Sequence record: AJ697969.1
Source of the DNA: Pseudomonas phage EL
DNA length: 64,000 nt
Strand: one strand, 5' to 3'
Part shown: one piece after another, positions 4,086 to 20,859 of the stretch
How positions within the stretch are numbered: the stretch's first letter is position 1
Layout: the number at the start of each line of letters is the position of its first letter
Notes under the pieces: model-generated
Databases searched by the model: none
Told to the model about the DNA's origin: nothing
Seen by the model: only the letters and a program-made list of their open reading frames with translations
Made by a program: the position numbers and the translations under genes

Positions 4086-5639
4086 ATGTTTAACATCGAG
4101 GTTAAGCGGAAATCCAAGAAGACGATTAAAGCCATCATTGTTTCGTTGAATGAGAAGAGCCTCCGCTTTAACGGTGATGCAACAATCAAACTTGAACGGG
4201 TGATTAAAGAAAAGGATGCGAGTGATCCTAATCTCTTCAGTTGTTTCAACGAGTATGTGGAGAACATCTTCGATACGGATAAGAAGATTGAACTCTTTAA
4301 GTTGTATGAAAAGGCGTATCAGATTGCCGAAAGTCCTACGTATAAGGACTACCGGGTTGAAATCGCTGAAATTAAACCGATTATCAATGCTATTCTAAAC
4401 CTCATTGATGTTCCCAAGTACTGTAGCTTCATCCAGTATTCCGAACACATGGTCGTTCCTCCTGACCTGAGCGTTGCCTCCAGTAAGGGGGATTACCCGG
4501 AACAAACAACCATTACGGATTACGATTATAAAGAGTTGGTTAAGCTGACCTTTGTGATCCGTTCGGTTTATCCGATCATCTTCTCGTTAATTGCTCGCTT
4601 CGATGCGGCAATGGGAACAGGGTACAGTGAGCAGGTGTGTGGGAGTCTGATTAAAGATAACGCCCACATCGTTAACCTGTATGGGTGGAAGAAGCTTCAG
4701 ACCTATGTGAACTTTGCCTTTGGTAAACGAGGTATACCCCAGCAAGCAGACAGCATTGGGAGTGTAGAGTATTTCGTGGAGCGGGTGCTGTATGATACCC
4801 TCTTCTCCCGGCTGTGCTGTGCGGTCATCCCCGAAACCGAAGAAGGGAAGCACCTGGCCACCGCCATTAACGCTTCGGTACGCCATCATGGATCGATTGG
4901 GGGTGGGTTTAAAGCCAAGGATGCCCGGGAAGGTGAGGATGATAAGCGGTCCCTGTTGGAACGGTATCATATCAACGAAGAGATCAAGGCGGCAAATGAA
5001 ACCGTAGACGCTGAGTATTTCAGTTTAGGGTTGTTTGACGAGAATGACAATGAACGGTACGTGGATCGGTTCAAGATCCCGTGTCTGGGCCTAGGTATAA
5101 AGAATCCCCAGCTGGTGGAACAGGTCTACGACAACATGCCCCCGAACTGGGACATCACGTTGGACAATCATGTCATTACGTTGCTTCAACTGACGTTCGT
5201 CGATGCGATCTCTCCTATGATCTTCTGGAGTTGTGACGGGCATCAACTGCGGGCAGCCATTGCCTTGGCTCAGGTCCGTTTGAGCGAACAAGGGTATCAT
5301 TACCTTCCGTCGGTACTGGGAGCGAGTAATAATCCCGGAGGCATGCGATCCCTTTCGGATGGTTTGCGGTTGAACACCGAAGATAAAGAATTCCTGGTCA
5401 GTATTTGTGACATCCAAAGTCGTAATGACGAAGGACGGTCCTTTAATGAAGCCGTGGAGGTCGCAACGGAGTTCTTGGAAACCTTTGGGAATGGGCAATG
5501 GAAATCGAACCTGGAATATGGGGTATTGGATGATCCTGAAGTCTATCAACGGGTAGAACGCGCTGCGTTGTTCGACCTGGAGATTGATTTGGAAATCAAG
5601 AATGAGTTCATGCGGTTAGTTAGACAAGTCAATACCTGA
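4086..5639 (+). CDS. hypothetical protein
   Basis: 517-aa ORF with GGAGTGAACC-ATG RBS context. Confidence 0.7.
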   Translation: MFNIEVKRKSKKTIKAIIVSLNEKSLRFNGDATIKLERVIKEKDASDPNLFSCFNEYVENIFDTDKKIELFKLYEKAYQIAESPTYKDYRVEIAEIKPIINAILNLIDVPKYCSFIQYSEHMVVPPDLSVASSKGDYPEQTTITDYDYKELVKLTFVIRSVYPIIFSLIARFDAAMGTGYSEQVCGSLIKDNAHIVNLYGWKKLQTYVNFAFGKRGIPQQADSIGSVEYFVERVLYDTLFSRLCCAVIPETEEGKHLATAINASVRHHGSIGGGFKAKDAREGEDDKRSLLERYHINEEIKAANETVDAEYFSLGLFDENDNERYVDRFKIPCLGLGIKNPQLVEQVYDNMPPNWDITLDNHVITLLQLTFVDAISPMIFWSCDGHQLRAAIALAQVRLSEQGYHYLPSVLGASNNPGGMRSLSDGLRLNTEDKEFLVSICDIQSRNDEGRSFNEAVEVATEFLETFGNGQWKSNLEYGVLDDPEVYQRVERAALFDLEIDLEIKNEFMRLVRQVNT

Positions 5640-5673: not shown

Positions 5674-7110
5674 ATGTCCGAAATGTTGGTGACATTGACC
5701 CGAGCCATTTTTGGTATGGGGAATAGCAACCACGATCACGTTCATCGTCATAACCAACTCAACCTGGACAGCACTGAGGTGGATGACCTCATCATGGAAC
5801 AGGTCAATGGAGGTGTTACCGCGGGTACCCTGAACCGCATTGCTGCCTCCAGCGGTAACCTGTCCCAGCGTCCTCAAGGCTACGTCTCCGTCGAAGAAGG
5901 CTTCGGCGTACGGCGTGGAATTGGACAACTCACGTTCGTTATTGAAAGCAATTCAAACTTCCATTCGGAAATGTGTGTGGTGGGGTACCTCTTTGGAGGC
6001 ACTGCGTCGGAACAAGGTATCTCGGATGACACCATGTTCGTTCCGGTACGGACTTGGTCAACCTTGACGACCAATACCCATGACAGTCAAGGCTTCCCGA
6101 TGACCAAGCGGATGATCGACAGTTCCCATCAGTTCCTCATGGGATCGGTGGATCAGAACAAAGACCTGAAAGCCGTACGTCCGTTGGATGTCGGGAATGA
6201 AGCCTTGGGGTTTGCCGCCAGTGAAGAAGATGGTTCTGAGATGATGTATGCCGGGACGGTGGGGAGCGACCTCAAGAACAACACCTTGATGTCGAAGACC
6301 CTCAACCTCAACCCCACGCATTATTCCCGGGAGTTGCTCAAACTGGCCACCAATGCAGGGTTCCACTCCTCCAATGGCAGTTCGTTGGAAGTGGAACTGT
6401 CCAACGGATTGATCGGCGAATCGATTGGAGAACTCTCCCCGCTCGAAAACCCTTTCATGCGGGCAATGATGCAATCCACCGGTCAGTACATGTTGGGTGG
6501 GTTCCAGGGGTTCAGTATTGGGGAAATCTATCAGGTCTTCGATAACCTGTTGGATGTCATGAACCTCAACCTGTTGAATCCCAGTTCCTTTGCGGAAGAC
6601 AACACCCTGCTCACCAGCAGTGAATATGGGTCTGCGGGTAACCATGAGGTGATTGCTACGGAACTGGCGATGATGTCGGTTCACCTGATGTTGCAGTGTG
6701 GTCTCTCCAGCCTACGGTTCTCCGCCACCAATAACCTCATGGAATATAGCACGATCATGGATGATGGTGTGGGTGTCGCTTTCGTCATCGGTGAAGCCAT
6801 GTCCATGTTGGACAATGACATGTTCGTGGAAAACCGGGTGGAGGACTTCAAGCGTCTGATTGCCCAACACTTCTTCTCGAAATACTCGGGACCTCATGTT
6901 CATTTGAGAACCTTGATGAATATTGAAGTGGAGTGTTACATGTTTGGTGAGATCGTTATTACGATTTCGTTCAATGGGGAAGCCAACGAGAAAACCTTCA
7001 CCAACGCTACCTACTACATTAATCATACCAGCAGCAGCATTGCCGGTAATGAAAACGGCCTGTTGGAAGCCAAGAACTTCCTGACCGGTATTCGTGAATA
7101 CTTCAGCTAA
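5674..7110 (+). CDS. hypothetical protein
   Basis: 478-aa ORF with an AGAGGAAAC RBS. Confidence 0.7.
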   Translation: MSEMLVTLTRAIFGMGNSNHDHVHRHNQLNLDSTEVDDLIMEQVNGGVTAGTLNRIAASSGNLSQRPQGYVSVEEGFGVRRGIGQLTFVIESNSNFHSEMCVVGYLFGGTASEQGISDDTMFVPVRTWSTLTTNTHDSQGFPMTKRMIDSSHQFLMGSVDQNKDLKAVRPLDVGNEALGFAASEEDGSEMMYAGTVGSDLKNNTLMSKTLNLNPTHYSRELLKLATNAGFHSSNGSSLEVELSNGLIGESIGELSPLENPFMRAMMQSTGQYMLGGFQGFSIGEIYQVFDNLLDVMNLNLLNPSSFAEDNTLLTSSEYGSAGNHEVIATELAMMSVHLMLQCGLSSLRFSATNNLMEYSTIMDDGVGVAFVIGEAMSMLDNDMFVENRVEDFKRLIAQHFFSKYSGPHVHLRTLMNIEVECYMFGEIVITISFNGEANEKTFTNATYYINHTSSSIAGNENGLLEAKNFLTGIREYFS

Positions 7111-7124
7111 GAGGATAACCGCTC

Positions 7125-8561
7125 ATGCACGAAACCAATGAACTGAACAAACTGTACGAAGCGATGTGTTTGTCGTGGGGCGCGCAGGTTAAAGAACAGG
7201 GACGACTCGTCTTTATGATCGATGGGGAAGAATTCCCACTCCGTATTGATGGGATGACCCTCCACCTTCCGCTGAGCGAAGTCCTGGATGGGAACTGCGT
7301 GGATAAGGTCTTCTTCCACCCGGCCTGTGAAAACATCGTGTCGAAAGAAACGGAAGTGTTCAAGATCATCCGGCGGATGACCTGTATGAAACTGCTGGAT
7401 ACCTTCCGTCGTATTCCGATGGTGTTATTCACCGTTGCAGGCCATAAGCCCAAGAGTACCTGGAACCAACGTATCCACGACATGCTGGAGCCCCTTAAAG
7501 GTGCCAAGCGTGCGGTACGGGATGAACTCAACGCATTGTTCAGCCGTATGCATGTGGAAGTGGAAGAGAATGGGTTGGATAACCGTTTCATTCACTTCAA
7601 GGTATCTAAGGGCGGTGGTACCAGTAAGACCACGGGTCAACGGATCTATTACAAGACCCGTCCGGAGTTTCCGTTCTATACGGAAATCGTTCGTCGTCTG
7701 GCACGTTCGGATGGTCAATCGGATAACCAGACCATTGAAATCAATAACCACACGGTCTCCCGAGCGGCACTTCGTCTGGCCGCCCATATCTTCCAGAACG
7801 TCCTTCCGGCGGTAAACAGTCCCAGTGACTATGAGTTTGAATCGACTTCCCCGGTGGCGTCTCGTCTAGTGTCCTACATGGGGTGCTATGCGGAAATCGC
7901 AGATCAATTGAATAAGATCCAGAATACCTTCCGATCTGATTTCGATAAAGCCGGGTTGTACCCGATTGATCTGAGCTGGACGGAACGCCTGGAAGAACTA
8001 CCGGATATTTATCGCCAAGTCCCAGTACTGGATTACAACAGCCACAACACCCATGATGAAGTCCAGCATCAAGCAGTGAGTCGGAATGACATGGGTGGTC
8101 TGCTGTCGGTTACCAGTACCAACCAACAGGGTGTTTCTCAACATCAATCCCAACCGCAGCACGTTGCAGGAATGAGCGGGGACTATGACGTATCACCTCC
8201 GCAGATGCAAGCGGGAGACCGGTATGTCCGTACTGAGATCGATTACGTCGGTCAACGCGTTCTCCACCATGCGGTTAACCAAACCACCAATAACCCGGTC
8301 GTCTACATCTGTAGCCGTAAAGGGAACTTCCTGCAACGCTCTGAAACCAACATGATGCTCCAGCAAATGGGTATGTTGGGTGGGATGGGTGGTATGATGG
8401 GTGGAACGATGCTGGCCAACGGGATGGTTCAACTGCCGAACGGTATGATCGTGAATCCGCAGATGATGGGGGGTGTTTCGATGCCCACACCTACCGCCGC
8501 ACCGAGTGTATACCCGGACGCCGGTATGGGGTTTGACCTGGGAGCCCCAGGTATCTTCTAA
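7125..8561 (+). CDS. hypothetical protein with Gly/Met-rich low-complexity C-terminal tail
   Basis: 478-aa ORF; the C-terminus reads MMLQQMGMLGGMGGMMGGTMLANGMVQLPNGMIVNPQMMGGVSMP. Confidence 0.7.
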   Translation: MHETNELNKLYEAMCLSWGAQVKEQGRLVFMIDGEEFPLRIDGMTLHLPLSEVLDGNCVDKVFFHPACENIVSKETEVFKIIRRMTCMKLLDTFRRIPMVLFTVAGHKPKSTWNQRIHDMLEPLKGAKRAVRDELNALFSRMHVEVEENGLDNRFIHFKVSKGGGTSKTTGQRIYYKTRPEFPFYTEIVRRLARSDGQSDNQTIEINNHTVSRAALRLAAHIFQNVLPAVNSPSDYEFESTSPVASRLVSYMGCYAEIADQLNKIQNTFRSDFDKAGLYPIDLSWTERLEELPDIYRQVPVLDYNSHNTHDEVQHQAVSRNDMGGLLSVTSTNQQGVSQHQSQPQHVAGMSGDYDVSPPQMQAGDRYVRTEIDYVGQRVLHHAVNQTTNNPVVYICSRKGNFLQRSETNMMLQQMGMLGGMGGMMGGTMLANGMVQLPNGMIVNPQMMGGVSMPTPTAAPSVYPDAGMGFDLGAPGIF

Positions 8562-9017: not shown

Positions 9018-9044
9018 TGTGACCCGACATAAGGAATTATCCCA

Positions 9045-10187
9045 ATGGAATACTTAACGACCCAACGAAGTCGATTGTATCCCAACCTGGATACTCGTCT
9101 GGTATTAAACAAAACCATAGGGTGTTCACGTTTCATATGGAACGCTCTACTGGGTAATCATAAGGAAGAATACGGTCTTTGGGTAGAGGATCCAGAAACT
9201 CATCCTAAACCGAGTTGTTCTTTAAGTTCCTTTAATCAAAAGCTGAACGAACTTAAAGTTGAATACCCCTGGTTAAATGAGGTCAGTTCTGTTGCTTTAC
9301 AACAAACAGTTCTTCATTTAACCAAGGCTTTTAGTGAGTTCTTCCAGGGTATTCATGGTTATCCAAAATTTAAATCTAAACGAGATCCCGGTGGATTTAA
9401 CCTCAGTAGTGCAGCGGGAACTTTAGCCAAGGACGGCAAGATTCGAATCCCCAAGATAAAGGGATACACCACCTGTCGACCTAAGCTCCCGTTGGATCAG
9501 GAAATTAGGAACTACAGCATTGTCAAAGACCGGGTTGGGAATTACTTTGTCAATTGCTTAGTAACTAAACCTTGTCTACCGAATACGGCTAAAGGTCAAG
9601 GACTGGTGGGGGTTGATCTGGGGATTAAATCCTTAGCGGTGGCGAAGCGGTCTACAGGTGAAATCTTTACCTTGGAGAATCCTCGAACCTACATGAAGTA
9701 CCACCGTAGACGTGTACGACTTCAACGGCGATTAGCCAAGAAACAGAAAGGGAGTCAAAACCGTAATAAAGCTAGAATTAAACTGGCCAAACTAGAACGT
9801 AAGGTCGGCAATATTCGCAAGAACACCCTGGATACCTTCACCTCTAAACTGATTAGCGAAAACCAAGTAATCAGTATTGAGGATTTGAATGTTAAAGGGA
9901 TGCTGAAAAACAGCCGGTTGGCTAAGCATATCCAAGACTGTGGATTTAGCACCCTCCGGAGGATGTTGGAACACAAGGCTAAACGGTATGAATCACCGGT
10001 TATTATTAGCCTGGTCCATCGATTTTACCCCAGCACCCAGTGTTGTTCAGCGTGTGGTATTAAACGTGAGATCAAACTGACCCTTAATGACCGGGAATGG
10101 ACCTGCGCTGAATGCGGGACCTCTCACGACAGAGACATCAATGCTGCAACGAATATCCTGTATGAAGGACTTCGGTTAGTGGTCTGA
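9045..10187 (+). CDS. tnpB: TnpB (IS200/IS605-family OrfB, RuvC-like nuclease with zinc ribbon)
   Basis: N-terminus RLYPNLDTRLVLNKTIGCSRFIWNALL (OrfB N-domain); RuvC-I VGVDLGIKSLA; RuvC-II ISIEDLNVKGM; zinc ribbon CCSACGIKREIKLTLNDREWTCAECG; RuvC-III HDRDINAATNI. Confidence 0.85.
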   Translation: MEYLTTQRSRLYPNLDTRLVLNKTIGCSRFIWNALLGNHKEEYGLWVEDPETHPKPSCSLSSFNQKLNELKVEYPWLNEVSSVALQQTVLHLTKAFSEFFQGIHGYPKFKSKRDPGGFNLSSAAGTLAKDGKIRIPKIKGYTTCRPKLPLDQEIRNYSIVKDRVGNYFVNCLVTKPCLPNTAKGQGLVGVDLGIKSLAVAKRSTGEIFTLENPRTYMKYHRRRVRLQRRLAKKQKGSQNRNKARIKLAKLERKVGNIRKNTLDTFTSKLISENQVISIEDLNVKGMLKNSRLAKHIQDCGFSTLRRMLEHKAKRYESPVIISLVHRFYPSTQCCSACGIKREIKLTLNDREWTCAECGTSHDRDINAATNILYEGLRLVV

Positions 10188-10361
10188 TAGAAAATTTACT
10201 CTTTGGAGTAACTACCGAAGCCTACTCGGGATGTTAAGCCTGTGGAGCATCAGTGCGGTTAAGCTGAGCAATGAAGCAGGAAGTTTGAGGTTAAAACATT
10301 GGGATAAAGACAGTCTTAACTCATTATTGAAAAGACTGCTGTTGACTGTAATGGAGCCGTT
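9045..10361 (+). mobile_element. solo tnpB element (IS1341-like; TnpA absent) with 174-nt structured 3' non-coding region (candidate omega-RNA / right end)
   Basis: intact tnpB with no Y1 transposase in the window; the 3' region 10188-10361 contains an imperfect hairpin (GACAGTCTT...AAGACTGCT) and has no long ORF; element boundaries are not determinable from a single copy. Confidence 0.45.
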
Positions 10362-12668
10362 ATGAGTAAAGAAAAATTGAATCAGGACCTGAAAGGTGTA
10401 AGTAGTGAGATCCGTGCCGCACTGGGTGCAGAGGATACGGATCTTACCCCTGACAGTGCAGCGGGTCAATTCCTCCAGGAAGTCCGTTACAAGTATCCCT
10501 GCGGGGAGAATCAAATCCATCCTGCTTTAGTGGGTGTCAGCAGTAACCTGATTCTCTTCCCGCACGAAGCCTCCGCGGGTCGTCTCTATATGGCGGGTAA
10601 CATGATCCCTAAATCCGTGCCGACCGAAGGAGCGGGTGAACGGATGATGGTAACCGGGTACGAATTTGAGGAACATTACGGTGGAACGGCTCGTAAGGTC
10701 GAAGCCCCTGCGAATATGCTGGTGGAAGAGATCTTCTTCGTTCAGAGTCTGGTTCCGGGTAAGGATACGGATGACTGGAATTCGATTTACGTGGTCTTTA
10801 AGAACGACGAACAGAACGCCTACGACCTTCTGGAGCTACCTCGGTATAACACCCATAACCACTACGTTGGGTTCGAATATAAATACGATAAAGAGAAACT
10901 CCGTAAGCTCCGTAAAGGTGCCACTTTCGCTAAAGGGACCGTCTTCGCTAAGAGTCCCCGTATCAGTGAGAATGGGGAATGGTGTTTTGCAATGCCGACC
11001 TTGGTAGCCGCCTATTCGGACCAAAGGACTGAGGAGGATGGCGTGCTTATCACCCGTTCCTATGCGGAACGTTCGGCTTGTATGTTCAAGCACGAGTTCA
11101 GCTATGAATGGAATGAGGATGAATGGATTCCTCTGATGCTGTACGGAACGGACGAGAACCCCCAACCGCTCCCTGAGTCGGGTGATAACATCCGTGAGGA
11201 TGGGATCGTCATGGGCTTCCGTCGCCGCATCAAAGAGAACGCGCTGGTTTCCCTGACCAAGAAGTCCCTACGAGAACCGGATCTGGTGTACGACAAGTTG
11301 TTCTATGCGCCGGTGGATGCGGTTGTGATGTCAGTCACTGTTCGGTCGGATCGGATGAAGAACCGGTCCAATAACCGGGGAACGGATTACATCGAACAAC
11401 ACCACAATGCCATGCTGGACCGCTATGAGAAACGCCAGAATGAAATGTGGAACAATGTGATCCGGTGGTACGAAGGGAAGATCGCTGCCAACCGCGGGGA
11501 AGACATTCCCATTACCTTTGACCTCGATACCTTCATTCGGAACGCGTATGGTAACTATACCCGCAATGGGTTGGGTCGTATTAACCCGTTGGCCCGAGTG
11601 GAACGGTGGGATAAACTGAAAGATTGGAACGTGACCATCGAACTGAAGGAACGGGTCAAAGGTCGTGTTAAATTCAAGTACGCGGGTTTGAACGGTGACA
11701 AAGGGGTGTGTGTACGGGTCATTGAAGACGACGAAGCTCCCACCTATCCGGATGGGACTCGGGCGGAGTTCATTAAAGATAACGTACCGGCGTTCCGTCG
11801 CCAGATCTTTTCGTTGCTCATGGAACTGAGTATCAACTATGTGAACATGAACGTTCAACGGGAAGTCAGACACCTACGGCTACAAGGGGATTATGAAGGC
11901 GCTTTCCAGGCGTTGATGACGTTCTATGAAACCGGTTTCCCTGAATTCAGTGAATTGGTTGCTCATGCGTTGGTTACGGAGGAGGAGAAACGTGAGCACG
12001 TCGACGATGTCTGTCGCCGGAAGATTTCCGTGCATGTGGTCAGTAACACGAAGTTGTATGGCGTGAACCTGATCAACGCCCTGCGTCGTCAATACCCGTA
12101 TAAGCCGCAGAAAGCCATTATCGTGAACGCACTGGGAGAACGGGTGGAAACCGAGAACCCTATCCTTATCAGCTGTCAGGACATTATGCTCCTGGATAAG
12201 TTTGGTACGGACATGAGTGCGCAGAGTATGCCGAAGGCTAACCTCTTTGGTATGCCAGCGAAGATGAACGAAGGCAGTAAATACGCCACCCCCATGAAAG
12301 ACAGTAATAACAAGAATACCGGTGAAACCGAAGGCCGGTTGCAAGTCAGTCACGCGGGCGGGCAGGAAATGATCAAGCAACTGGCTCTGGCGTATTCCCC
12401 CGAGAACCAGAAAAAAGCCTCCCAACGGGTTATTCGTGCGGATGATCCGTTTGAGATTCCTCGGTTGATTAAACCGGAGGAGTATTTGGGGAATCGGGCG
12501 TTGAAAATGGCGGTGGGAATGTTGTCGGATTCGGGTTATCGGCTGCGAGCTGAACTACCCAGTGATCGTCGGGAATATCCAACCTTTAACATGGATGAAA
12601 TCCCAGGGTTAGATGACGAGACCTTGAAGCAGCTTCAGTCATCCGAGAAACCCACTCAAGAACCTTAA
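10362..12668 (+). CDS. multisubunit RNA polymerase beta-subunit homolog, N-terminal/middle fragment
   Basis: the segment RLYMAGNMIPKSVPTEGAGERMMVTG aligns to RpoB fork-loop-2 / beta-D-loop ([14 protein letters not shown]...[12 protein letters not shown]); 768 aa; followed immediately by the second beta fragment. Confidence 0.55.
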   Translation: MSKEKLNQDLKGVSSEIRAALGAEDTDLTPDSAAGQFLQEVRYKYPCGENQIHPALVGVSSNLILFPHEASAGRLYMAGNMIPKSVPTEGAGERMMVTGYEFEEHYGGTARKVEAPANMLVEEIFFVQSLVPGKDTDDWNSIYVVFKNDEQNAYDLLELPRYNTHNHYVGFEYKYDKEKLRKLRKGATFAKGTVFAKSPRISENGEWCFAMPTLVAAYSDQRTEEDGVLITRSYAERSACMFKHEFSYEWNEDEWIPLMLYGTDENPQPLPESGDNIREDGIVMGFRRRIKENALVSLTKKSLREPDLVYDKLFYAPVDAVVMSVTVRSDRMKNRSNNRGTDYIEQHHNAMLDRYEKRQNEMWNNVIRWYEGKIAANRGEDIPITFDLDTFIRNAYGNYTRNGLGRINPLARVERWDKLKDWNVTIELKERVKGRVKFKYAGLNGDKGVCVRVIEDDEAPTYPDGTRAEFIKDNVPAFRRQIFSLLMELSINYVNMNVQREVRHLRLQGDYEGAFQALMTFYETGFPEFSELVAHALVTEEEKREHVDDVCRRKISVHVVSNTKLYGVNLINALRRQYPYKPQKAIIVNALGERVETENPILISCQDIMLLDKFGTDMSAQSMPKANLFGMPAKMNEGSKYATPMKDSNNKNTGETEGRLQVSHAGGQEMIKQLALAYSPENQKKASQRVIRADDPFEIPRLIKPEEYLGNRALKMAVGMLSDSGYRLRAELPSDRREYPTFNMDEIPGLDDETLKQLQSSEKPTQEP

Positions 12669-12707
12669 CCCCATGATAGACTCACGGTATGGAGAGGAAT
12701 GTAACTC

Positions 12708-15700
12708 ATGGTAATGAAGATCAAACTCCGTGAATGGGCTAATTTACCAGAAGAAACTGTTCTCCGTTGGTTAAACACCCGCCGGTGGGTGGAGGTCACG
12801 GATGACCTGGACCAAGTCGCTCTAACGGATACCTACGCTCTGATCATTACCTGGCATGGAATGATCATCCACCGGCATTATAACGATGTCCCCTATTCCA
12901 TTAAGGAGATGGTACCCAGTAACAAGGTGGAAGGGGGTGAAGACACCGTCTATAACGATGGAACCAACGCGACGCCTATTAACCAGTTCTTAAAGGTCAT
13001 TCTTCCTACGATTATTGACCCGGTGGAAGTGGACGGGATTAAACGGCTTATTCATATCTGGCAGAATAAGCTGAATAACCTGCTGGTGGTGATGAGTGAA
13101 CGTTACGTTATTTCAGCCACCGCTGAATCCGTAGCGGAGTTCATGGAAGATGAAGGGATCTCTGGAATACGGGACCGTGTCCTGAGCAAGGAGATTTCAA
13201 TTGATGAGGGTGAGCGGGAGTTTGCGGATTATGTCCGGACCGCTCATTCCATTGCCAACAACACCCTCACCCTGCTGTCGCGTACGGGCGGGGTGGCCAT
13301 TAACCAGGCGTATCAGAAGACGATCATCCGGGGTAAAGTCTTTGACCTGAACAACTCGATCATGCCGAATGCGATTACGGTTCCGTATGCGCATGGGATT
13401 ACCAACCTGGCTGATATGCTGGGTGAACGGAATGCAGCAGGTAAAGCCGGGGTTTTGTCTTCAAAGATAAAAATCCCTGGTGGATGGAAGACCATGGGTA
13501 ACATCCGGGTGGGTGATGAAGTCGTTACACCCGATGGAGGTACCGCTAAGGTGCTGGCAGTTCACCCACAAGGTGTAACCAAGGTTGTACGGGTGCACTT
13601 CAAAGACGGTCGATATACTGACGTTAGTCCAGATCACCTGTGGAAGGTTAGACGTCATCATTGGTGCAACGATAAAGCCATGGCTAAACTCACTCGGGAG
13701 GAAGTGGAAGAACGTGTATGGCGAGTCATCACCACCAATGAGTTGAAAGACTATATTGGTCTGTCAACTAAGGTATACGTCCAACTGATTGAACCTGAAA
13801 GAAATGCCGATAAACCCTTCAAAATTCACCCGTATGTGCTCGGTGTCTTGTTGGGGGATGGATGCATTAGTCAAAAGGCTGTGGATATCACCAAACCTTA
13901 TCAACAGCTATTCGATAAGGTCCAATCGCTATTGCCAGAACATTTGGAATGTGTTTGGCGACCCAACCGTAAAGGTGATGGAGAACCTAAAACGTTTGGG
14001 ATCCGTTTTAAAGATCGTCGGTCCGAACAGCACATCAACTGGCATATCCGTGATGGCCTGAAGGAACTGGGCTTGTATGGAATGCGGTCGTGGGGAAAAG
14101 TCATTCCCGAAGAATATCTTCACGGATCGGCTAAACAACGTTTGGAGCTCCTCCAAGGACTGTTGGACACAGACGGAACTGTGGACAAACACAAATCGGT
14201 TAGCTTTAGCTCTTCGTCTAAGTTACTCTCCCTCGGAGTGCAATACTTGGTCAGAAGCCTAGGGGGGATGGCACGTCTCCAAGAACGTACTCCCCACTAC
14301 ACCCACAATGGAGAAAAAAGGGAAGGTCGTACGGACTATCGGGTTTATATCCGATACCCTCGACCAGAAGAACTCTTCACCCTAGACCACAAACGGGAAC
14401 GTGCGGTCTCGCACCAGCATACGGAAACCCTGAGACTGCAAGTAACTCATATTGAAGAACGTCCTGATGAGGAGACACAATGCATTACGATCGATCATCC
14501 TGATCATCTGTACATTACAGACGACTTCATTGTCACCCACAACAGCCTAACCAATAACGGCAAGGCCCTGAAATCATCGGAATGGTTCCACCGGAAGGTA
14601 CACATCCTGTCCGCTGTGGTGGCGGATATCGATCATTTCATGGACTGTGGAACGACCACTACAGTGCCGATCCGAATTCCCAATATGCAAGCGGCAATGG
14701 CACTGTTGGGTAAATTCAGGGTAACCGATACAGGAGAATTAGAACTCATTGATCAAACCACGGTGTGGTCAATTAAGCCAGGGGAGTGGGTTAATATTCG
14801 TAGTGTGGCCTTCTGTAATCACTACAATAGTGCTTCACCCTGCCGGGTATGCTACGGGATGATGGCGAGCTCTATCCCGTATAACGTGATGATGAAGAAA
14901 GGGGCTGATGTCGGGATGTGGTGTACCACCTCGATCTGTAACCCCATCGGCCAGGGAATGCTCTCCACCAAGCATTTCATTAGGAATGCAACGACCCGTA
15001 AGTTCGTTCCTGCGACTAAGGATAAGAACGTTATCTATTCCAATGGTGACGATATTTTCCTGACTAAGGAACTCTGTGCACCGGGCACTGAATTGGTGCT
15101 CAAAGCCGATATTGTAAACATCCTCTCGGATATCCGTTCCTTGGATGTTCTGGACAACTTGAGCCTGGATAAACTCCCGTACTTCTCTGAAGTCACATTC
15201 CGCTATGAAGTCGAAGACATCATGATGGGGGGTAAAACCCTCCAGCAGCATGCGGCTTGTACCTCGGTGTCGTCTCGGAATGCCCGGTTCTCGTTGGAGT
15301 TCCTGAACTATCTCCTGAGTAAAGGTTGGGCGAACGAAGGTAAGAAACATATTACCGTTGATTTGAGTGAATGGAATACGCTCAGTCCTATCTTCACACT
15401 GCCGTATGTTCGTGAAGACTTGGACATGCACCGGGCTCGGGTAGAGAACTTCATCACGTTCAATAAACGCAATAACGCCTGGAGACAGCAGATCGTTACA
15501 CCCCGTCTCTTTGGTGAGGTCTTAGCGGAATACTGGGGATTGATCAACCAGGAAACGAAAGGGATTAACATCATCCATCCTGAGGTCTTGCTCTATTCCA
15601 CGTTGTGTCGGGATCCCATGCGCGGGGATTATTCCCTGGCGAATGGTAAAGGACCTAAGTATTTCGTGAACTTCCAGGAGTGTATCAAAGGCAGGGGGGC

Positions 15701-15818
15701 GGGTATGCTCATGATCTACGAGAACCAGCAAAATGTGCTAAGTGATCCTAAGACATTCCGTGTGGTAAACCGTCAGGGGAGTCCGCTGGAGTGCTTCTTT
15801 AGCTTAGCGGTGAGTTGA
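12708..15818 (+). CDS. RNA polymerase beta-subunit homolog, C-terminal fragment, interrupted by an intein (precursor 1036 aa)
   Basis: the N-extein ends GERNAAGKAGVLS (candidate counterpart of RpoB GRHGNKGVIS); the C-extein contains NPIGQG (compare RpoB NIGQ); it sits next to the beta N-fragment; it contains a full intein (see separate feature). The beta assignment of this half is weaker than for 10362-12668. Confidence 0.5.
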   Translation: MVMKIKLREWANLPEETVLRWLNTRRWVEVTDDLDQVALTDTYALIITWHGMIIHRHYNDVPYSIKEMVPSNKVEGGEDTVYNDGTNATPINQFLKVILPTIIDPVEVDGIKRLIHIWQNKLNNLLVVMSERYVISATAESVAEFMEDEGISGIRDRVLSKEISIDEGEREFADYVRTAHSIANNTLTLLSRTGGVAINQAYQKTIIRGKVFDLNNSIMPNAITVPYAHGITNLADMLGERNAAGKAGVLSSKIKIPGGWKTMGNIRVGDEVVTPDGGTAKVLAVHPQGVTKVVRVHFKDGRYTDVSPDHLWKVRRHHWCNDKAMAKLTREEVEERVWRVITTNELKDYIGLSTKVYVQLIEPERNADKPFKIHPYVLGVLLGDGCISQKAVDITKPYQQLFDKVQSLLPEHLECVWRPNRKGDGEPKTFGIRFKDRRSEQHINWHIRDGLKELGLYGMRSWGKVIPEEYLHGSAKQRLELLQGLLDTDGTVDKHKSVSFSSSSKLLSLGVQYLVRSLGGMARLQERTPHYTHNGEKREGRTDYRVYIRYPRPEELFTLDHKRERAVSHQHTETLRLQVTHIEERPDEETQCITIDHPDHLYITDDFIVTHNSLTNNGKALKSSEWFHRKVHILSAVVADIDHFMDCGTTTTVPIRIPNMQAAMALLGKFRVTDTGELELIDQTTVWSIKPGEWVNIRSVAFCNHYNSASPCRVCYGMMASSIPYNVMMKKGADVGMWCTTSICNPIGQGMLSTKHFIRNATTRKFVPATKDKNVIYSNGDDIFLTKELCAPGTELVLKADIVNILSDIRSLDVLDNLSLDKLPYFSEVTFRYEVEDIMMGGKTLQQHAACTSVSSRNARFSLEFLNYLLSKGWANEGKKHITVDLSEWNTLSPIFTLPYVREDLDMHRARVENFITFNKRNNAWRQQIVTPRLFGEVLAEYWGLINQETKGINIIHPEVLLYSTLCRDPMRGDYSLANGKGPKYFVNFQECIKGRGAGMLMIYENQQNVLSDPKTFRVVNRQGSPLECFFSLAVS
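13446..14543 (+). other. intein 1: Hint splicing domain with inserted LAGLIDADG homing endonuclease; class-3-like (WCT) intein
   Basis: block A-like KIKIPGGWKTMGNIRVGDEVVTPDG; block B SPDHLW (Trp at B:12); LAGLIDADG motifs PYVLGVLLGDGCIS (~13828-13870) and RLELLQGLLDTDGTVD (~14143-14190); block F ETQCITIDHPDH (Cys at F:4); block G DDFIVTHN (Thr at G:5), +1 Ser at 14544. The N-terminal boundary is ambiguous between 13446 (A) and 13461 (S) because there is no N-terminal Cys. Confidence 0.75.
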
Positions 15819-15845
15819 GTGGGTGACCCCGTTCGTTAGTGTGGA

Positions 15846-15881
15846 CCTCTTAAGGGGGTCCTCGGAATCCCCCTTAAGAGG
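15846..15881 (+). terminator. hairpin (13-bp stem CCTCTTAAGGGGG / CCCCCTTAAGAGG, 10-nt loop) between the RNAP-beta gene and the helicase gene
   Basis: perfect inverted repeat 28 nt after the stop; there is no T-run and it abuts the next start codon, so it may act as terminator/attenuator or an RNA processing site. Confidence 0.45.
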
Positions 15882-15887
15882 TTGATT

Positions 15888-18170
15888 ATGCGAGCAACAG
15901 CAACTATCAGCAAAGCGAATCATTACTTCAGAATCAACGGGTTCTATGAGGAATTCGCGGTTCGGGTAATCCTACCGTTTTGTAAACTGAATCTCTGCAA
16001 GATGGCTAAGAAGCCAATACCGGGTACCCGGAAGCAGGCGTGGTTTGTTCAACACGTCTTTGCTCGGTCGAATTATGACAAGAGTGAATACCGGCTACCC
16101 ATTGAAACCCTTAAAGAGTTTGTGGAATTTGCGGGCTACCGGGGGTATAAAGAATCCCGCTTGAAGATTCAGGATGAACCGGAGATCGAAGGCAAGGATG
16201 TTGTATTCGAATTCAATCCAGGGTTTGATCAGTTCAGGGAAGGTCAAGGTGAATGGATTGAGTACATGCTGAGCGATGGGCACCTGAAGGTCAATAACGC
16301 CTCCACAGGCTTTGGGAAGATGCAACCGCTGTACGCGAAGATCAAAGTCCCGGGTGGTTGGAAGACAATGAGGGAGATGACCGTCGGTACCGAGGTCATT
16401 GCAGCGGATGGTACGGTCACTCAGGTGACTGGTGTTTACCCACACGGTAAACAACCCATTTACCGTTTGCACTTCGAAGACGGGCGTTATACCGATGCAG
16501 GACTGGATCACCTGTGGAAAGTGTTCACAGAGGAGACTCAGGCATGGACAGTCGTTAATACCCGTTCCGTACAGACCCTGTTGGCGAAAGAGCCGGATGG
16601 GGTATTTATCCCTCTGTGTGAGCCTGAAGACGGTCCGGAGAAGCCCTTTGTAACGGACCAATTGGAAGGTTCCCGCCAACAACGGTTGGAACACCTACGA
16701 CGACTCATGGATGAGAAAGGGTATGTGCGTGATGACGGTAGTCTGTCCTTTTCCAGTGAGGATGAGGTGGAAAGCACTACGGTTCAATACCTGGTTAGGA
16801 GTCTAGGGGGTATTGCCCGAAAGGTACCGTCTACAGGACTGTACCGCCGCAGGCAATACCGGGTGTACATCAAGCACCCTCGTCCTGAGGAACTCTTTAC
16901 CCTGACGAATAAGGGTGGCTACCTGACATCAAAGTCGGGTAACCAGTCCCTTAAGCTCCGGGTGAACCGCATTGAATTCATTGGGGAACATGAAGCCCAG
17001 TGCATCTCTGTAGCACACCCGGATCGTCTGTACATCACGGATGACTTCATCGTCACCCACAACACCTATATGGCCATCCACAGCATGGTGAAGATTGGTA
17101 AACGGACCTTAATCACCATGCAACCCCGTTACCAGATCAATTGGGTACGGGAACTCAACAAGATCGTTAAACTCATTCCAGGGGATCTCTTAATCTGGGA
17201 GAATACCCTGGAATCGTTGTATGAGTGTTTAGAAGACGGGAAGTTTGATCCTAAGATCATTATTATTCCGATGTCTCGTATTGAGGTCTTCCTCCGTAAA
17301 GGGAAAGAGACCCGAGACGGGTTACACATGGATGATTTGATCAAACGGATCAATCCGGGATTAAGGATCATTGATGAAGGGCATGAAGCGATTCATCAGA
17401 TCTTCTTGTCCTTAATGTTTGGGAATATCAAGAAACTCTTCCTGCTCTCAGCCACCTTGAAAGCAGACGATCCCTTTACGAACAAGATGTACCAGTACTT
17501 GTTCCCTAAACGGTTACGGTTAAAGGAGGCGGAACCCGAGCATTACATCGATGTAGTGGCGTACCTGTATCGCCTCAACACCCGTCGTTATCATCTCAAG
17601 ACGGAGCAGTTTGGAGCGTATAACGATAAGACGTTTGAAAAGAGCATCTTAAAGTCGGGTGTACTCCTGGCATTCTACTTTAAATTGGTCAATAAGGCCT
17701 TTAAGGAGTATTACCTCAATGTGAGGCGTGAAGGAACGAAGTGTTTGTTCTTCTTCTCCAGGGTCAGTATGTGCGATGCCATGTTGGAACTGTTCAGGAA
17801 AGAATATCCCGGCTGGGATTTCGAAACCTTTACTGGGGACGATTCCAAGCTGAAAGATAAGAAGGACAAGTACTTAAAGCACGAGATCATCATTACAACT
17901 CCGAACAGTTGTGGAACAGGTAAGGATATCGGGGGGTTGGTGACGGTGATCTGCGCCCACACGGTTGCGTCGACTCAGGCTAATAAGCAGATCATTGGAC
18001 GACTCAGGGCGTTGTCGGGTAAGTTCAATAATGAGATCGACCCTGCCTTTGTGTTCCTGGTGTGTTTGGACTTAGCGAAGCACGTGGAATATTTAGCCAA
18101 ACGGGAACAGGTGTTCTTTGAGAAACAGAAGACCTTCAAGCGTATCAATTCGGAATGCTCCCTGGACTGA
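15888..18170 (+). CDS. SF2 (DExH-box) helicase/ATPase interrupted by an intein
   Basis: motif I NASTGFGK (completed to GFGKT if the intein is excised at K|T); motif II RIIDEGHEA (DEGH); motif III LFLLSATL (SAT). ATG at 15888 preferred over the TTG at 15882. Confidence 0.6.
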   Translation: MRATATISKANHYFRINGFYEEFAVRVILPFCKLNLCKMAKKPIPGTRKQAWFVQHVFARSNYDKSEYRLPIETLKEFVEFAGYRGYKESRLKIQDEPEIEGKDVVFEFNPGFDQFREGQGEWIEYMLSDGHLKVNNASTGFGKMQPLYAKIKVPGGWKTMREMTVGTEVIAADGTVTQVTGVYPHGKQPIYRLHFEDGRYTDAGLDHLWKVFTEETQAWTVVNTRSVQTLLAKEPDGVFIPLCEPEDGPEKPFVTDQLEGSRQQRLEHLRRLMDEKGYVRDDGSLSFSSEDEVESTTVQYLVRSLGGIARKVPSTGLYRRRQYRVYIKHPRPEELFTLTNKGGYLTSKSGNQSLKLRVNRIEFIGEHEAQCISVAHPDRLYITDDFIVTHNTYMAIHSMVKIGKRTLITMQPRYQINWVRELNKIVKLIPGDLLIWENTLESLYECLEDGKFDPKIIIIPMSRIEVFLRKGKETRDGLHMDDLIKRINPGLRIIDEGHEAIHQIFLSLMFGNIKKLFLLSATLKADDPFTNKMYQYLFPKRLRLKEAEPEHYIDVVAYLYRLNTRRYHLKTEQFGAYNDKTFEKSILKSGVLLAFYFKLVNKAFKEYYLNVRREGTKCLFFFSRVSMCDAMLELFRKEYPGWDFETFTGDDSKLKDKKDKYLKHEIIITTPNSCGTGKDIGGLVTVICAHTVASTQANKQIIGRLRALSGKFNNEIDPAFVFLVCLDLAKHVEYLAKREQVFFEKQKTFKRINSECSLD
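16320..17063 (+). other. intein 2: mini-intein related to intein 1 with degenerate homing-endonuclease remnant; class-3-like (WCT)
   Basis: AKIKVPGGWKTMREMTVGTEV; GLDHLW (Trp); a single LAGLIDADG-like remnant RLEHLRRLMDEKGYVRDDG; YLVRSLGGIAR...YRVYIKHPRPEELFTL almost identical to intein 1; EAQCISVAHPDRLYITDDFIVTHN (Cys at F:4, Thr at G:5), +1 Thr at 17064. The N-boundary is 16320 (M, which yields a perfect GFGKT P-loop) or 16335 (A). Confidence 0.7.
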
Positions 18171-19557: not shown

Positions 19558-20859
19558 TTATTTCAATGCCATCTCCAAGTCTAAGAGGTTCGTACGGCTG
19601 CCCGCTGTGTGGTGTGCCTTCATGCGCTGCAATAAAAATGCAGTAGGAATCAAGACCACCTCAGAGCTGAGACGATGCCCTAAAGCCCCTAGACCTTCCC
19701 CACAACAGGTCTTACAATAGTAACCGTCCTTTAGGGTACAGAACTGAGGGACTCTGGCTTGTACGGGTTTATTAACGTAACGATCCAGGTTTTCAGCGGT
19801 GAGCTGTATCAGGACTTTCCCATCCTGGATCCACGTTCCTACCCAGTATCCTTTATTGGTTGGTAGGATCGTAACGGTTTCGGTCACCGGGGTACCGCAA
19901 TCCACGACATCCTCGCTAACGGCCGTACGGCCTATTAGACGCAACGTTTCCTTAACCCTAGCCCCACCTTCACCGGTGGACATAGAACGGCTGTAAGAGC
20001 CCTCTACGGCCGTGTTAATGTAGTCTGCCAAGAAGTTCGGATCCCAACCCTCCGCCAGGGAGTTAGGGAGCAGTACCCAACCGTCTCCTGAGGCATTGGG
20101 TTCAATACCGAAGGAAATGAACATCCGTTTACGCGAGTTGTCAATAAACTTCTTTGCAATAAAGAACTTACGGCTAGGACCAGACATTACGATCTTCATG
20201 TCCAGCGCCACACACTGATCAATAATCGAGGTAGCAACAACCGGATCATTGAGTTCGTCTTTATGCTCTTTAAAGAGACGATCCCTGAGTTTAATGACTT
20301 CAGGACTCACCGTTAGGGCATCTACTCCACCCGGTTTAATGAAGTGAGACCCTAACCCTTCCAGGAACTGGCAGTTATGGGAGAACTTCAAACACTGGTC
20401 TACACTGGCCTTCCCTTCAGGTACCGCTTCCCCCGGTGGGGGATTATCCACCATGAGAGTTTCCAAGATCTTCAAGATAACCGGTTTGGTGAACTCCTGG
20501 TTAAGGTAGGGTTGGGTCTTCCCGAAGCATTCCCAGAAGAGGATAACGTTGAAGAGTAAGAGTCCAAAGGTAGTCGTGACCGCTTTACCTTGCAACACGG
20601 GATGGAAGTCTCCCGGGAGTTCCAGGATTTCATCCATGTAGAACAGGGGTTCATTCACCTCCCCATTTACGGTATGGGTAGAACCCTCTACCACGACATT
20701 GAACCGATTATCCTCCACAAAGACAGCATAGGGGTATTTCTTGAACTGTCCAGAGGAATCTTCGTCTTCAAACTGGATAGTAATAATCGATTGAATAGCC
20801 GCCTTTTCGTTATAGGCTCGGTTATTCAGAAAGAGTTTAAGGTAGTCGAGTTTAGTCAT
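19558..20859 (-). CDS. hypothetical protein (433 aa; C-terminal Cys cluster CKTCCGEGLGALGH)
   Basis: long minus-strand ORF with an ATGA overlap onto the upstream minus gene. Confidence 0.65.
   Translation of the reverse strand: MTKLDYLKLFLNNRAYNEKAAIQSIITIQFEDEDSSGQFKKYPYAVFVEDNRFNVVVEGSTHTVNGEVNEPLFYMDEILELPGDFHPVLQGKAVTTTFGLLLFNVILFWECFGKTQPYLNQEFTKPVILKILETLMVDNPPPGEAVPEGKASVDQCLKFSHNCQFLEGLGSHFIKPGGVDALTVSPEVIKLRDRLFKEHKDELNDPVVATSIIDQCVALDMKIVMSGPSRKFFIAKKFIDNSRKRMFISFGIEPNASGDGWVLLPNSLAEGWDPNFLADYINTAVEGSYSRSMSTGEGGARVKETLRLIGRTAVSEDVVDCGTPVTETVTILPTNKGYWVGTWIQDGKVLIQLTAENLDRYVNKPVQARVPQFCTLKDGYYCKTCCGEGLGALGHRLSSEVVLIPTAFLLQRMKAHHTAGSRTNLLDLEMALK

Follow-up and report, generated by a model that had tools for sequence, protein, structure and literature searches.

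A stretch of 64,000 nucleotides from Pseudomonas phage EL (AJ697969.1; the window) carries at 10362-15818 two adjacent genes, and the question they raise is which parts of an RNA polymerase (RNAP) they encode. A reading made from the letters of the DNA alone (the sequence-only reading) had taken them for an RNAP beta subunit divided between two genes. The two open reading frames (ORFs) indeed lie side by side on the same strand with the ends it gave, 10362-12668 and 12708-15818, and the three peptides it quoted, YMAGNMIPKSVPTEGAGERMM, GKAGVLS and NPIGQG, are all present. Our analysis indicates that, very probably, two of the five subunits that make up the non-virion RNAP (nvRNAP) of a nucleus-forming Pseudomonas jumbo phage of the EL type are encoded here, the C-terminal half of beta by ORF1 and the C-terminal half of beta-prime by ORF2, whose predicted bridge helix is interrupted by a class 3 intein. 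The intein, which is absent from the sequence-only reading, accounts for the length of ORF2, 1036 amino acids rather than 670.

ORF1 and the C-terminal half of beta

10362-12668, + strand: ORF1, 768 amino acids; nvRNAP beta-like subunit, C-terminal half of beta (phiKZ gp71-73 ortholog)
11682-11720, + strand: double-psi beta-barrel (DPBB) lysine motif AGLNGDKGV, within ORF1

The protein encoded by ORF1 matches PHROG 3295 from end to end (E 7e-244), and in the PDB it matches gp71-73 of the phiKZ nvRNAP (7OGP_C, E 1.4e-39) and the AR9 chain 7S00_C (E 8e-13). The AlphaFold (AF2) model built from 51 homologs has a predicted local distance difference test score (pLDDT) of 81, and a Foldseek search with it returned phage chains first (8QUE_C at 2e-47, template modelling (TM) scores 0.73-0.79) and then only bacterial RpoB chains at ~1e-26. 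By hhalign, residues 55-615 of ORF1 align with E. coli RpoB 659-1239 at a probability of 97.3%. The fork-loop-2/beta-D-loop region that the sequence-only reading saw in ORF1 is borne out by this alignment: YMAGNMIPKSVPTEGAGERMM corresponds to amino acids 76-96, the beta region-D-like motif lies at 10587-10664, and RLYMAGNMIPKSVPT is paired with the very E. coli beta counterpart that had been proposed.

The same alignment places K439-YAGLNGD-K447-GVCV of ORF1 on K1065-MAGRHGN-K1073-GVIS of E. coli beta, and both lysines are invariant across the 51 homologs (the phiKZ counterparts are K386/K394). The equivalent of HGNKGVIS is LNGDKGVCV, amino acids 443-451, and therefore the catalytic motif that had been sought in ORF2 is in ORF1. 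In phiKZ, gp71-73 forms the C-terminal half of beta and gp123 the N-terminal half (PMC4666361), and the DPBB lysines are carried by gp71-73 (PMC8287921, PMC4666361). Thus ORF1 is the C-terminal half of beta and belongs to the gp71-73 family.

Profile searches had been proposed as a check on the RNAP identity. The Pfam scan found no RNAP domain in ORF1 or ORF2 at E <= 1, and NCBIfam gave only rpoB matches below threshold on ORF1, although precomputed Pfam PF00562 (Rpb2 domain 6) assignments exist for many ORF1 homologs that are 55-65% identical. Since PHROGs, the PDB sequence search, hhalign and the predicted folds place ORF1 on beta and ORF2 on beta-prime, the Pfam null cannot be used to refute the RNAP identity of either protein.

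ORF2 and the C-terminal half of beta-prime

12708-15818, + strand: ORF2, 1036-amino-acid precursor; beta-prime C-terminal half (phiKZ gp74 ortholog) plus intein
12708-13445, + strand: N-extein, precursor amino acids 1-246; ends LGERNAAGK, N-terminal part of the bridge helix
13446-14543, + strand: intein of class 3 type, 366 amino acids, precursor amino acids 247-612; first residue Ala1
13626-13649, + strand: intein block B, SPDHLW (W312)
13833-13871 and 14142-14183, + strand: LAGLIDADG motifs of the intein
14472-14513, + strand: intein block F, ETQCIT (C592)
14520-14546, + strand: intein block G, FIVTHN|S, C-terminal junction
14544-15818, + strand: C-extein, precursor amino acids 613-1036 and stop codon; starts with Ser+1
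14544-14621, + strand: rest of the bridge helix, in the C-extein
14643-14660 and 14811-14858, + strand: zinc cysteines, in the C-extein
14913-14990, + strand: trigger loop including NPIGQG, in the C-extein

ORF2 matches phiKZ gp74 (7OGP_D, E 2.6e-23) in two blocks that meet at gp74 residues 255|256: the N-extein aligns as far as residue ~254, and the C-extein aligns with residues 256-667 (E 2e-21). The AF2 model of the spliced protein has a pLDDT of 84, and its Foldseek matches are gp74, the AR9 counterpart and then exclusively bacterial beta-prime chains (D/J). Structure prediction, the second check that had been suggested, thus places ORF1 on bacterial beta as expected, whereas it places ORF2 on beta-prime. 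By hhalign, residues 179-491 of spliced ORF2 align with E. coli RpoC 714-1058 at a probability of 96.9%. In this alignment GERNAAGK-SLTNNGKALKSSEWFHRKV falls on ...STHGARK781-G782... of the beta-prime bridge helix, so that K246 equals K781, and NPIGQGMLSTKHF falls on RpoC GEPGTQLTMRTFH. The pattern DCG...C...C..C is placed on the RpoC zinc site C814/C888/C895/C898, and the four cysteines (C281, C337, C346 and C349 in spliced numbering) are invariant in 51 ORF2 homologs. The trigger loop is represented by ICNPIGQGMLSTKHF on RpoC IGEPGTQLTMRTFH. NPIGQG (amino acids 745-750), which had been taken for a beta segment, aligns with GEPGTQ of this loop and is therefore a beta-prime hallmark.

The bridge helix, the trigger loop and the Cys4 zinc site are all found on one polypeptide, as expected for gp74, which is a beta-prime-like subunit with a bridge helix (L242-Y279), a trigger helix and a zinc site (PMC8287921, PMC4666361). 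ORF2 is the C-terminal half of beta-prime and belongs to the gp74 family.

One would argue that ORF1 and ORF2 could still make up a split beta, ORF1 as its N-terminal and ORF2 as its C-terminal half, with GKAGVLS in the place of HGNKGVIS, as split beta genes do occur in these phages and both ORFs are named 'RNA polymerase beta subunit' by PHROGs and by the GenBank annotators. However, the stretch of E. coli beta covered by ORF1 already includes the HGNKGV equivalent, beta regions H and I lie in ORF1 and not in ORF2, and the alignments and structural matches of ORF2 lead to beta-prime only. Moreover, GKAGVLS (amino acids 245-251) straddles a splice junction, being the last two residues of the N-extein and the first five of the intein (GK|AGVLS), and the real partner of ORF1 is a gp123 ortholog at 59845-61557, 47 kb away. 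We give the split-beta interpretation virtually no credence. What survives of it is the beta-like nature of ORF1 and the fragmentation itself, as the matches to PHROG 3295, 7OGP_C and 7OGP_D confirm a phiKZ-type fragmented multisubunit RNAP.

An intein in the bridge helix

The insertion in ORF2 is already visible in PHROG 3015, whose 653 positions span residues 2-1034 and so imply an insertion of ~380 residues. Its exact borders are given by phage GXNNE2, in which the gene encodes 670 amino acids and lacks exactly residues 247-612 of the EL precursor; the exteins of the two phages differ at four positions (named are G77A, M645T and K981N). The spliced ORF2 sequence recurs without a difference (100% identity) in the metagenomic protein P0121. 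GXNNE2 and P0121 share the intein-free junction AAGK|SLTNNGK, and RNAAGKSLTNNGKALKSSE is the junction-peptide sequence of the spliced subunit. The intein, AGVLSSKIKIPGGW...DDFIVTHN, lies between Lys246 and Ser613 and, as the alignment with RpoC places it, separates the equivalents of E. coli beta-prime K781|G782 in the catalytic bridge helix. The location is not a typical Walker A P-loop: GERNAAGK|S resembles GxxxxGK[ST] but is not one.

In the PDB both splicing termini are covered by the class 3 intein DnaBi1 of M. smegmatis (Msm; 6BS8), the best match, and by gp41-1 inteins. Class 3 is defined by the Trp-Cys-Thr (WCT) triplet of Trp B:12, Cys F:4 and Thr G:5 (PMC2807308, PMC5050341). The EL intein has these residues in SPDH-L-W312, ETQ-C592-IT and IV-T610-HN, with the spacing and alignment of Msm DnaBi1. 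Its first residue, Ala247, is non-nucleophilic, as in class 3, and is fixed by the intein-free allele, while the C-terminus is an Asn followed by Ser at +1 (THN612|S613). Pfam LAGLIDADG_3 (PF14528) matches residues 477-534 of ORF2 with 43.7 bits against a cut-off of 22.5, and both motifs, YVLGVLLGDGC and LLQGLLDTDGT, retain their acidic residues. Thus the intein apparently contains an intact double-motif LAGLIDADG endonuclease.

Could the 366 residues instead stay in the protein for good, as a lineage-specific domain or a dead intein, so that the polymerase works with the insert or ORF2 is a pseudogene? Bacterial beta-prime tolerates large lineage-specific insertions, related inteins at the same beta-prime site have degenerate endonucleases and non-canonical TRN or TSN termini, and splicing is here deduced from sequence. 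Against this, the insert interrupts the bridge helix, which is required for catalysis (PMC8287921), every class 3 catalytic residue is preserved, as is the terminal HN|S, and the insert is missing to the exact residue in phages that otherwise share 99-100% identity. Furthermore, the phages that carry it are plaque-forming isolates, and the ORF is open over 1036 codons. A retained insert is therefore very improbable in our opinion, and an intein that splices by the class 3 route is the explanation we prefer.

Which of the two polymerases

The following genes of the window bear on the assignment of the locus.

15882-18170, + strand: downstream superfamily 2 (SF2)-type DNA helicase at the phiKZ gp75 position; PHROG 16 helicase, E 2e-49
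19558-20859, - strand: gp80-like virion RNAP beta-prime-like C-terminal subunit; PHROG 2962, E 3e-144
59845-61557, + strand: gp123-like beta N-terminal half; 7OGP_E, E 2.3e-6; PHROG 2943, E 3e-162

Gene order around the locus mirrors phiKZ gp69-gp88, which supports ORF1 and ORF2 as parts of the non-virion enzyme. The product of 19558-20859 is 25% identical to phiKZ gp80 by BLASTP (E 5e-30), gp80 is listed as a virion RNAP subunit (PMC8287921), and the gene is part of the second polymerase of the phage, not of the nvRNAP. The PDB holds only nvRNAP structures, which makes the logic of best matches one-sided, and the PHROG names do not separate the two enzymes; ORF1 and ORF2 might on these grounds be assigned to the virion-packaged RNAP. 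Nevertheless, the order beta-C, beta-prime-C, helicase is that of phiKZ gp71-73, gp74 and gp75, the virion gp80 ortholog is a distinct gene, and ORF2 matches the gp80 family (PHROG 2962) only marginally (E 8e-4). We consider the virion assignment highly unlikely and retain the non-virion one.

Three of the five subunit types of a phiKZ-type nvRNAP, the gp71-73-like, gp74-like and gp123-like ones, are thus found in the window; the set also has gp55-like and gp68-like subunits, whose genes may lie outside the 64 kb. A gp68 match was sought in the syntenic ORF of 517 amino acids at 4086-5639, which has no PDB match even at E 10. The sequence-only reading had seen no beta-prime (DFDGD) gene in the window. 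This is correct for the motif, as neither DFDGD nor DxDGD occurs in any of its six frames, and the DFDGD-bearing N-terminal fragment of beta-prime probably lies outside the window. It is not correct for beta-prime as such, as both ORF2 and the gp80 ortholog are beta-prime-like.

Polymorphism and relatives of the intein

Five EL-group P. aeruginosa jumbo phages (phiRU, IR-QUMS-PaBa1, MIZ-Pa99, HHBS47_1 and HHBS8_1) are 98.0-98.5% identical to 10362-15818 over its full length, and GXNNE2 and GXNNA8 match over only 80% of it. The beta-prime intein is present in six of the eight EL-like isolates (98% identical) and absent from these last two. The record of GXNNE2 is classified as Chimalliviridae; Elvirus, the genus to which the window belongs as well, being ~98-99% identical to phiRU. 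Phage vB_PQ1 was left out of the comparisons for its shattered ORFs and the many spurious 'CRISPR' repeat_region features that its record (L003) carries across the RNAP genes. Two other records show oddities of curation: MIZ-Pa99 is filed under Straboviridae (L001), and in GXNNE2 the beta-prime-C and helicase genes, although intein-free, bear the annotation 'terminase large subunit, intein-containing' (L002 8347-11967).

When the window is compared with GXNNE2, four synonymous differences are found within 6 nt of the junction (GCA GGT AAA|AGC CTA vs GCG GGT AAG|AGC TTG), against a background of 107 differences in 5967 nt (1.8%). Such junction-clustered synonymous changes are the trace expected of co-conversion in homing, or they reflect divergence of the target site. 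An insertion occurs in 4 of 100 homolog clusters of the spliced protein, always at the identical GK|...N|SL site, in lineages whose exteins are only 52-61% identical; the same site is filled in three divergent lineages (P0140, P0155 and P0190). The endonuclease region is shortened in three of the four insertion-bearing clusters, and two of the four have TRN or TSN termini. One contig with an insertion at the beta-prime site has an intein-free downstream helicase. At +1, 36 of the 51 aligned homologs have Ser and 15 have Ala, as phiKZ does; all intein-bearing alleles have Ser.

The family to which the intein belongs is plain from its homologs. There are 394 at E <= 1e-10, nearly all of them in Walker A GK|..THN|T sites, and the best, with 53-59% identity, are inserted immediately behind the Walker A lysine (GxGK|AQPL...THN|T/S) of PhoH, AAA, ABC, SNF2 and Rad50-like ATPases. 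The Walker A P-loop is the 'classic' insertion site of class 3 inteins in the class 3 literature. A same-family intein was also met in the dCTP-deaminase-like protein P0011 (GTCVGK|AQSL...THN|STWARLG), which has no P-loop ATPase Pfam match; it is a second case of this P-loop intein family at 'GK|S' in a protein of that kind.

The helicase gene just downstream of ORF2 has a P-loop intein of its own:

16320-17063, + strand: helicase intein paralog, 248 amino acids, class 3; Walker A GFGK|MQPLY...FIVTHN|TYM; first residue Met

It has lost ~100 residues including the first LAGLIDADG motif, is 39-51% identical to the beta-prime intein, and is absent from GXNNE2, whose intein-free allele sets its junction. 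The nearest relative that the beta-prime intein has among sequenced isolates is a full-length intein in the P-loop of the orthologous helicase of Raoultella phage VB_ZK_P1, which is 56.8% identical and starts with the same AGVLSS.IKIPGGW; nothing interrupts the beta-prime gene of VB_ZK_P1, whose +1 residue is Ala. The 76 beta-prime-C loci retrieved from IMG/VR are all free of the intein, while in 27 of them the next gene downstream has a same-family intein, ending VTHN|T[YF], at the site that is occupied in the EL helicase. Most simply, a helicase P-loop intein would have jumped ectopically into the P-loop-like GK|S of the adjacent polymerase gene. A common recognition sequence of the two sites was considered and set aside: the target DNAs share a GGTAAA|A core but match at only 13-21 of 42 nt across the pairs compared, which is too little similarity for such a claim.

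One more relative is of a different kind. The distant beta-prime-C homolog IMGVR_UViG_3300000233_000006 (L071 4001-6401), with 25% identity, is matched over a stretch that exceeds those of its peers by ~135 codons, perhaps owing to an unrelated insertion or to a mini-intein located elsewhere in the gene.

Proposed splicing and homing

The features described above suggest the following course of events. ORF2 would be translated as a 1036-amino-acid precursor with its bridge helix interrupted between Lys246 and Ser613. Block-F Cys592, assisted by block-B Trp312, would attack the Lys246-Ala247 bond, the N-extein would be transferred onto Ser613, and cyclisation of Asn612 would then free the intein and leave a 670-amino-acid subunit with a continuous bridge helix. 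During co-infection the endonuclease of the freed intein would be expected to cut the intein-free allele (AATGCAGCGGGTAAG|AGCTTGACC; the GXNNE2-type target sequence is GAACGGAATGCAGCGGGTAAGAGCTTGACCAATAACGGCAAG), and the intein would be copied in by homing. As to origin, it was most likely a member of the class 3 family of Walker-A 'GK|T' sites, among them the site in the adjacent helicase gene, that would have colonised the P-loop-like 'GK|S' in the polymerase.

A further thought, which by analogy with other jumbo phages may be worth stating though we hold it to be rather unlikely, is that the unspliced or freshly spliced precursor, being a subunit which has to enter the proteinaceous phage nucleus, carries the LAGLIDADG endonuclease through the selective import barrier, behind which it would cut the essential polymerase gene of competitors. 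If true, EL would practise interference competition against intein-free EL-like phages, as the PhiPA3 intron endonuclease does. In addition, thiol-dependent class 3 splicing could be a redox- or temperature-sensitive gate on the assembly of the middle/late transcription machinery.

Several points weigh against the interpretation given here. The AF2 confidence is modest at the N-terminus of the bridge helix (pLDDT 45-74 for residues 211-260). Pfam's Intein_splicing model gave no match on ORF2, and the block positions B:12, F:4 and G:5 were assigned from motifs and pairwise alignments rather than from a curated intein profile. Splicing, its chemistry and the DNA cleavage we infer from sequence features. 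The nvRNAP assignment is drawn from orthology and synteny with phiKZ, there being no solved virion-RNAP structure for comparison. In a neighbour-joining tree of 23 inteins the bootstraps are 18-47%, so that a single origin of the inteins at the beta-prime site cannot be demonstrated, nor does the tree prove a transfer from helicase to polymerase. Finally, the MIZ-Pa99 and HHBS8_1 records are frameshifted in the endonuclease region, which, if real, conflicts with an obligatorily intact precursor. These frameshifts are probably sequencing errors; if real, they would resemble a nascent split intein.

The endonuclease region shows a localized divergent patch at 13961-14039 that separates two alleles: the window reads RPNRKGDGEPKTFGIRFKDRRSEQHINW, and P0122 and MIZ-Pa99 are of the type RSNGDKEPKTFAIRFKDHVGGPLNKW. 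A deletion of 5 nt in this patch shifts the frame in MIZ-Pa99, whose ORF2 is annotated as two overlapping coding sequences (L001 ~9600-9680); HHBS8_1 is fragmented too.

Comparison with known systems

The nvRNAP of phiKZ has the same fragment order as the EL locus, beta C-half, beta-prime C-half and helicase, and the same catalytic elements, that is, two DPBB lysines, bridge helix, trigger loop and Cys4 zinc site. However, identity of gp71-73 and gp74 to the EL proteins is only 20-25%, with TM-scores of 0.6-0.8 (PDB 7OGP/8QUE). Also, gp74 has no intein and Ala at +1, whereas ORF2 has an intein and Ser at +1, and the phiKZ beta-C gene is split by the HNH/NUMOD4-like ORF72, whereas EL ORF1 is uninterrupted. 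ORF72 (L085 4487-5437, between PHIKZ071 and PHIKZ073) has near-threshold HNH_3 and NUMOD4 matches. Its position inside the beta-C gene explains the name 'gp71-73', and therefore different chimalliviruses have different homing elements in their nvRNAP genes.

Class 3 P-loop inteins (mycobacteriophage Bethlehem DnaB, the prototype, M. smegmatis DnaBi1 6BS8 and TerL1-a) share with the EL intein the WCT triplet, the HN terminus, Ser/Thr at +1 and insertion right after Gly-Lys. They also lack Cys, Ser or Thr at position 1, as the EL intein does, and have a LAGLIDADG endonuclease nested between the splicing halves. Unlike theirs, the host of the EL intein is an RNAP and not an ATPase, its AAGK|S merely mimicking Walker A GxGK|T. 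Tori et al. reported that every class 3 intein known by 2009 resided in a helicase-like ATPase.

Inteins are known from archaeal A'/A'' and from the second-largest subunits of eukaryotic and nucleocytoplasmic large DNA virus (NCLDV) RNAPs (PMC1635734). Those of the archaeal largest subunits (Mja rPol A', Mja rPol A'', Nph rPol A'') and of RPB2, RPA2 and RPC2 resemble the EL intein in their LAGLIDADG endonucleases and conserved catalytic insertion sites. In contrast, the RNAP inteins of PMC1635734 begin with Cys (class 1-like) and reside in polymerases of cells or eukaryotic viruses, whereas the EL intein begins with Ala1 and resides in a bacteriophage.

Another parallel is the group I intron of PhiPA3 with its HNH endonuclease gp210, which like the EL intein is a mobile homing element at a conserved catalytic residue of a jumbo-phage RNAP gene. 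This intron is polymorphic between related phages, and the endonuclease must enter the phage nucleus (PMC11620839). The PhiPA3 element is spliced at the RNA level, has a free-standing HNH endonuclease and lies in the virion beta gene, whereas that of EL would act through protein splicing in what appears to be the non-virion beta-prime gene. The competitive advantage has been demonstrated for PhiPA3 and is conjectured for EL.

The fragmentation of beta and beta-prime genes in phiKZ-like phages was already known. The abstract of the 2005 EL genome report by Hertveldt et al. is said to mention a transposase and LAGLIDADG/HNH endonucleases 'associated with intron and intein sequences', and the existence of inteins in EL was thus probably noted then. 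Inteins go unmentioned in a 2025 review of nucleus-forming phages, and in the searchable literature we found no description of an intein in a phage multisubunit RNAP or of a bridge-helix intein. What appears to be new is the host protein and the site for a class 3 intein, atypical in lying outside an ATPase. If our interpretation is right, the bridge helix of a phage multisubunit RNAP is assembled only after protein splicing, and an intein class that had been linked almost only with the P-loops of ATPases provides a natural example of a P-loop intein at a look-alike 'GK|S' in an unrelated enzyme of a neighbouring gene. The near-isogenic pair of intein-plus (phiRU-like) and intein-minus (GXNNE2) phages suits tests of homing and competition in the phage nucleus. 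Database annotations of these genes as 'beta subunit' or 'terminase large subunit' need correction.

Further observations in the window

Upstream of the polymerase genes, two consecutive ORFs of 478 amino acids each lie on the same strand (5674-7110 and 7125-8561) at the positions of phiKZ gp69 and gp70 and fall into separate PHROGs of unknown function (3141 and 3520). ORF 22683-24407, checked as a chimallin candidate, has no PDB match.

Just upstream of the beta-C gene, at 9018-10320, there is a 1.3-kb TnpB-only element of the IS200/IS605 type without tnpA. Its tnpB ORF (9045-10187) matches NCBIfam guided_TnpB with 301 bits as well as the Pfam OrfB_IS605 and Cas12f1-like TNB models, and its GC content is 0.44 against ~0.49 for the window. 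The element is found at this site only in EL (the window), phiRU and IR-QUMS-PaBa1; MIZ-Pa99 has 20 bp instead. An Rfam scan of the whole window at gathering thresholds gave no match, thus no group I intron and no annotated TnpB guide RNA.

Between the stop codon of beta-prime-C and the helicase start, at 15845-15882, a perfect 14-bp inverted repeat ACCTCTTAAGGGGG...CCCCCTTAAGAGGT is found, whose RNA folds with -31.8 kcal/mol (z -5.6). Its role could lie in termination, in RNA processing or, as a hairpin, in translational control. The helicase Shine-Dalgarno sequence AAGAGG lies within the 3' arm of the repeat, and the true start of the helicase is likely the ATG at 15888.

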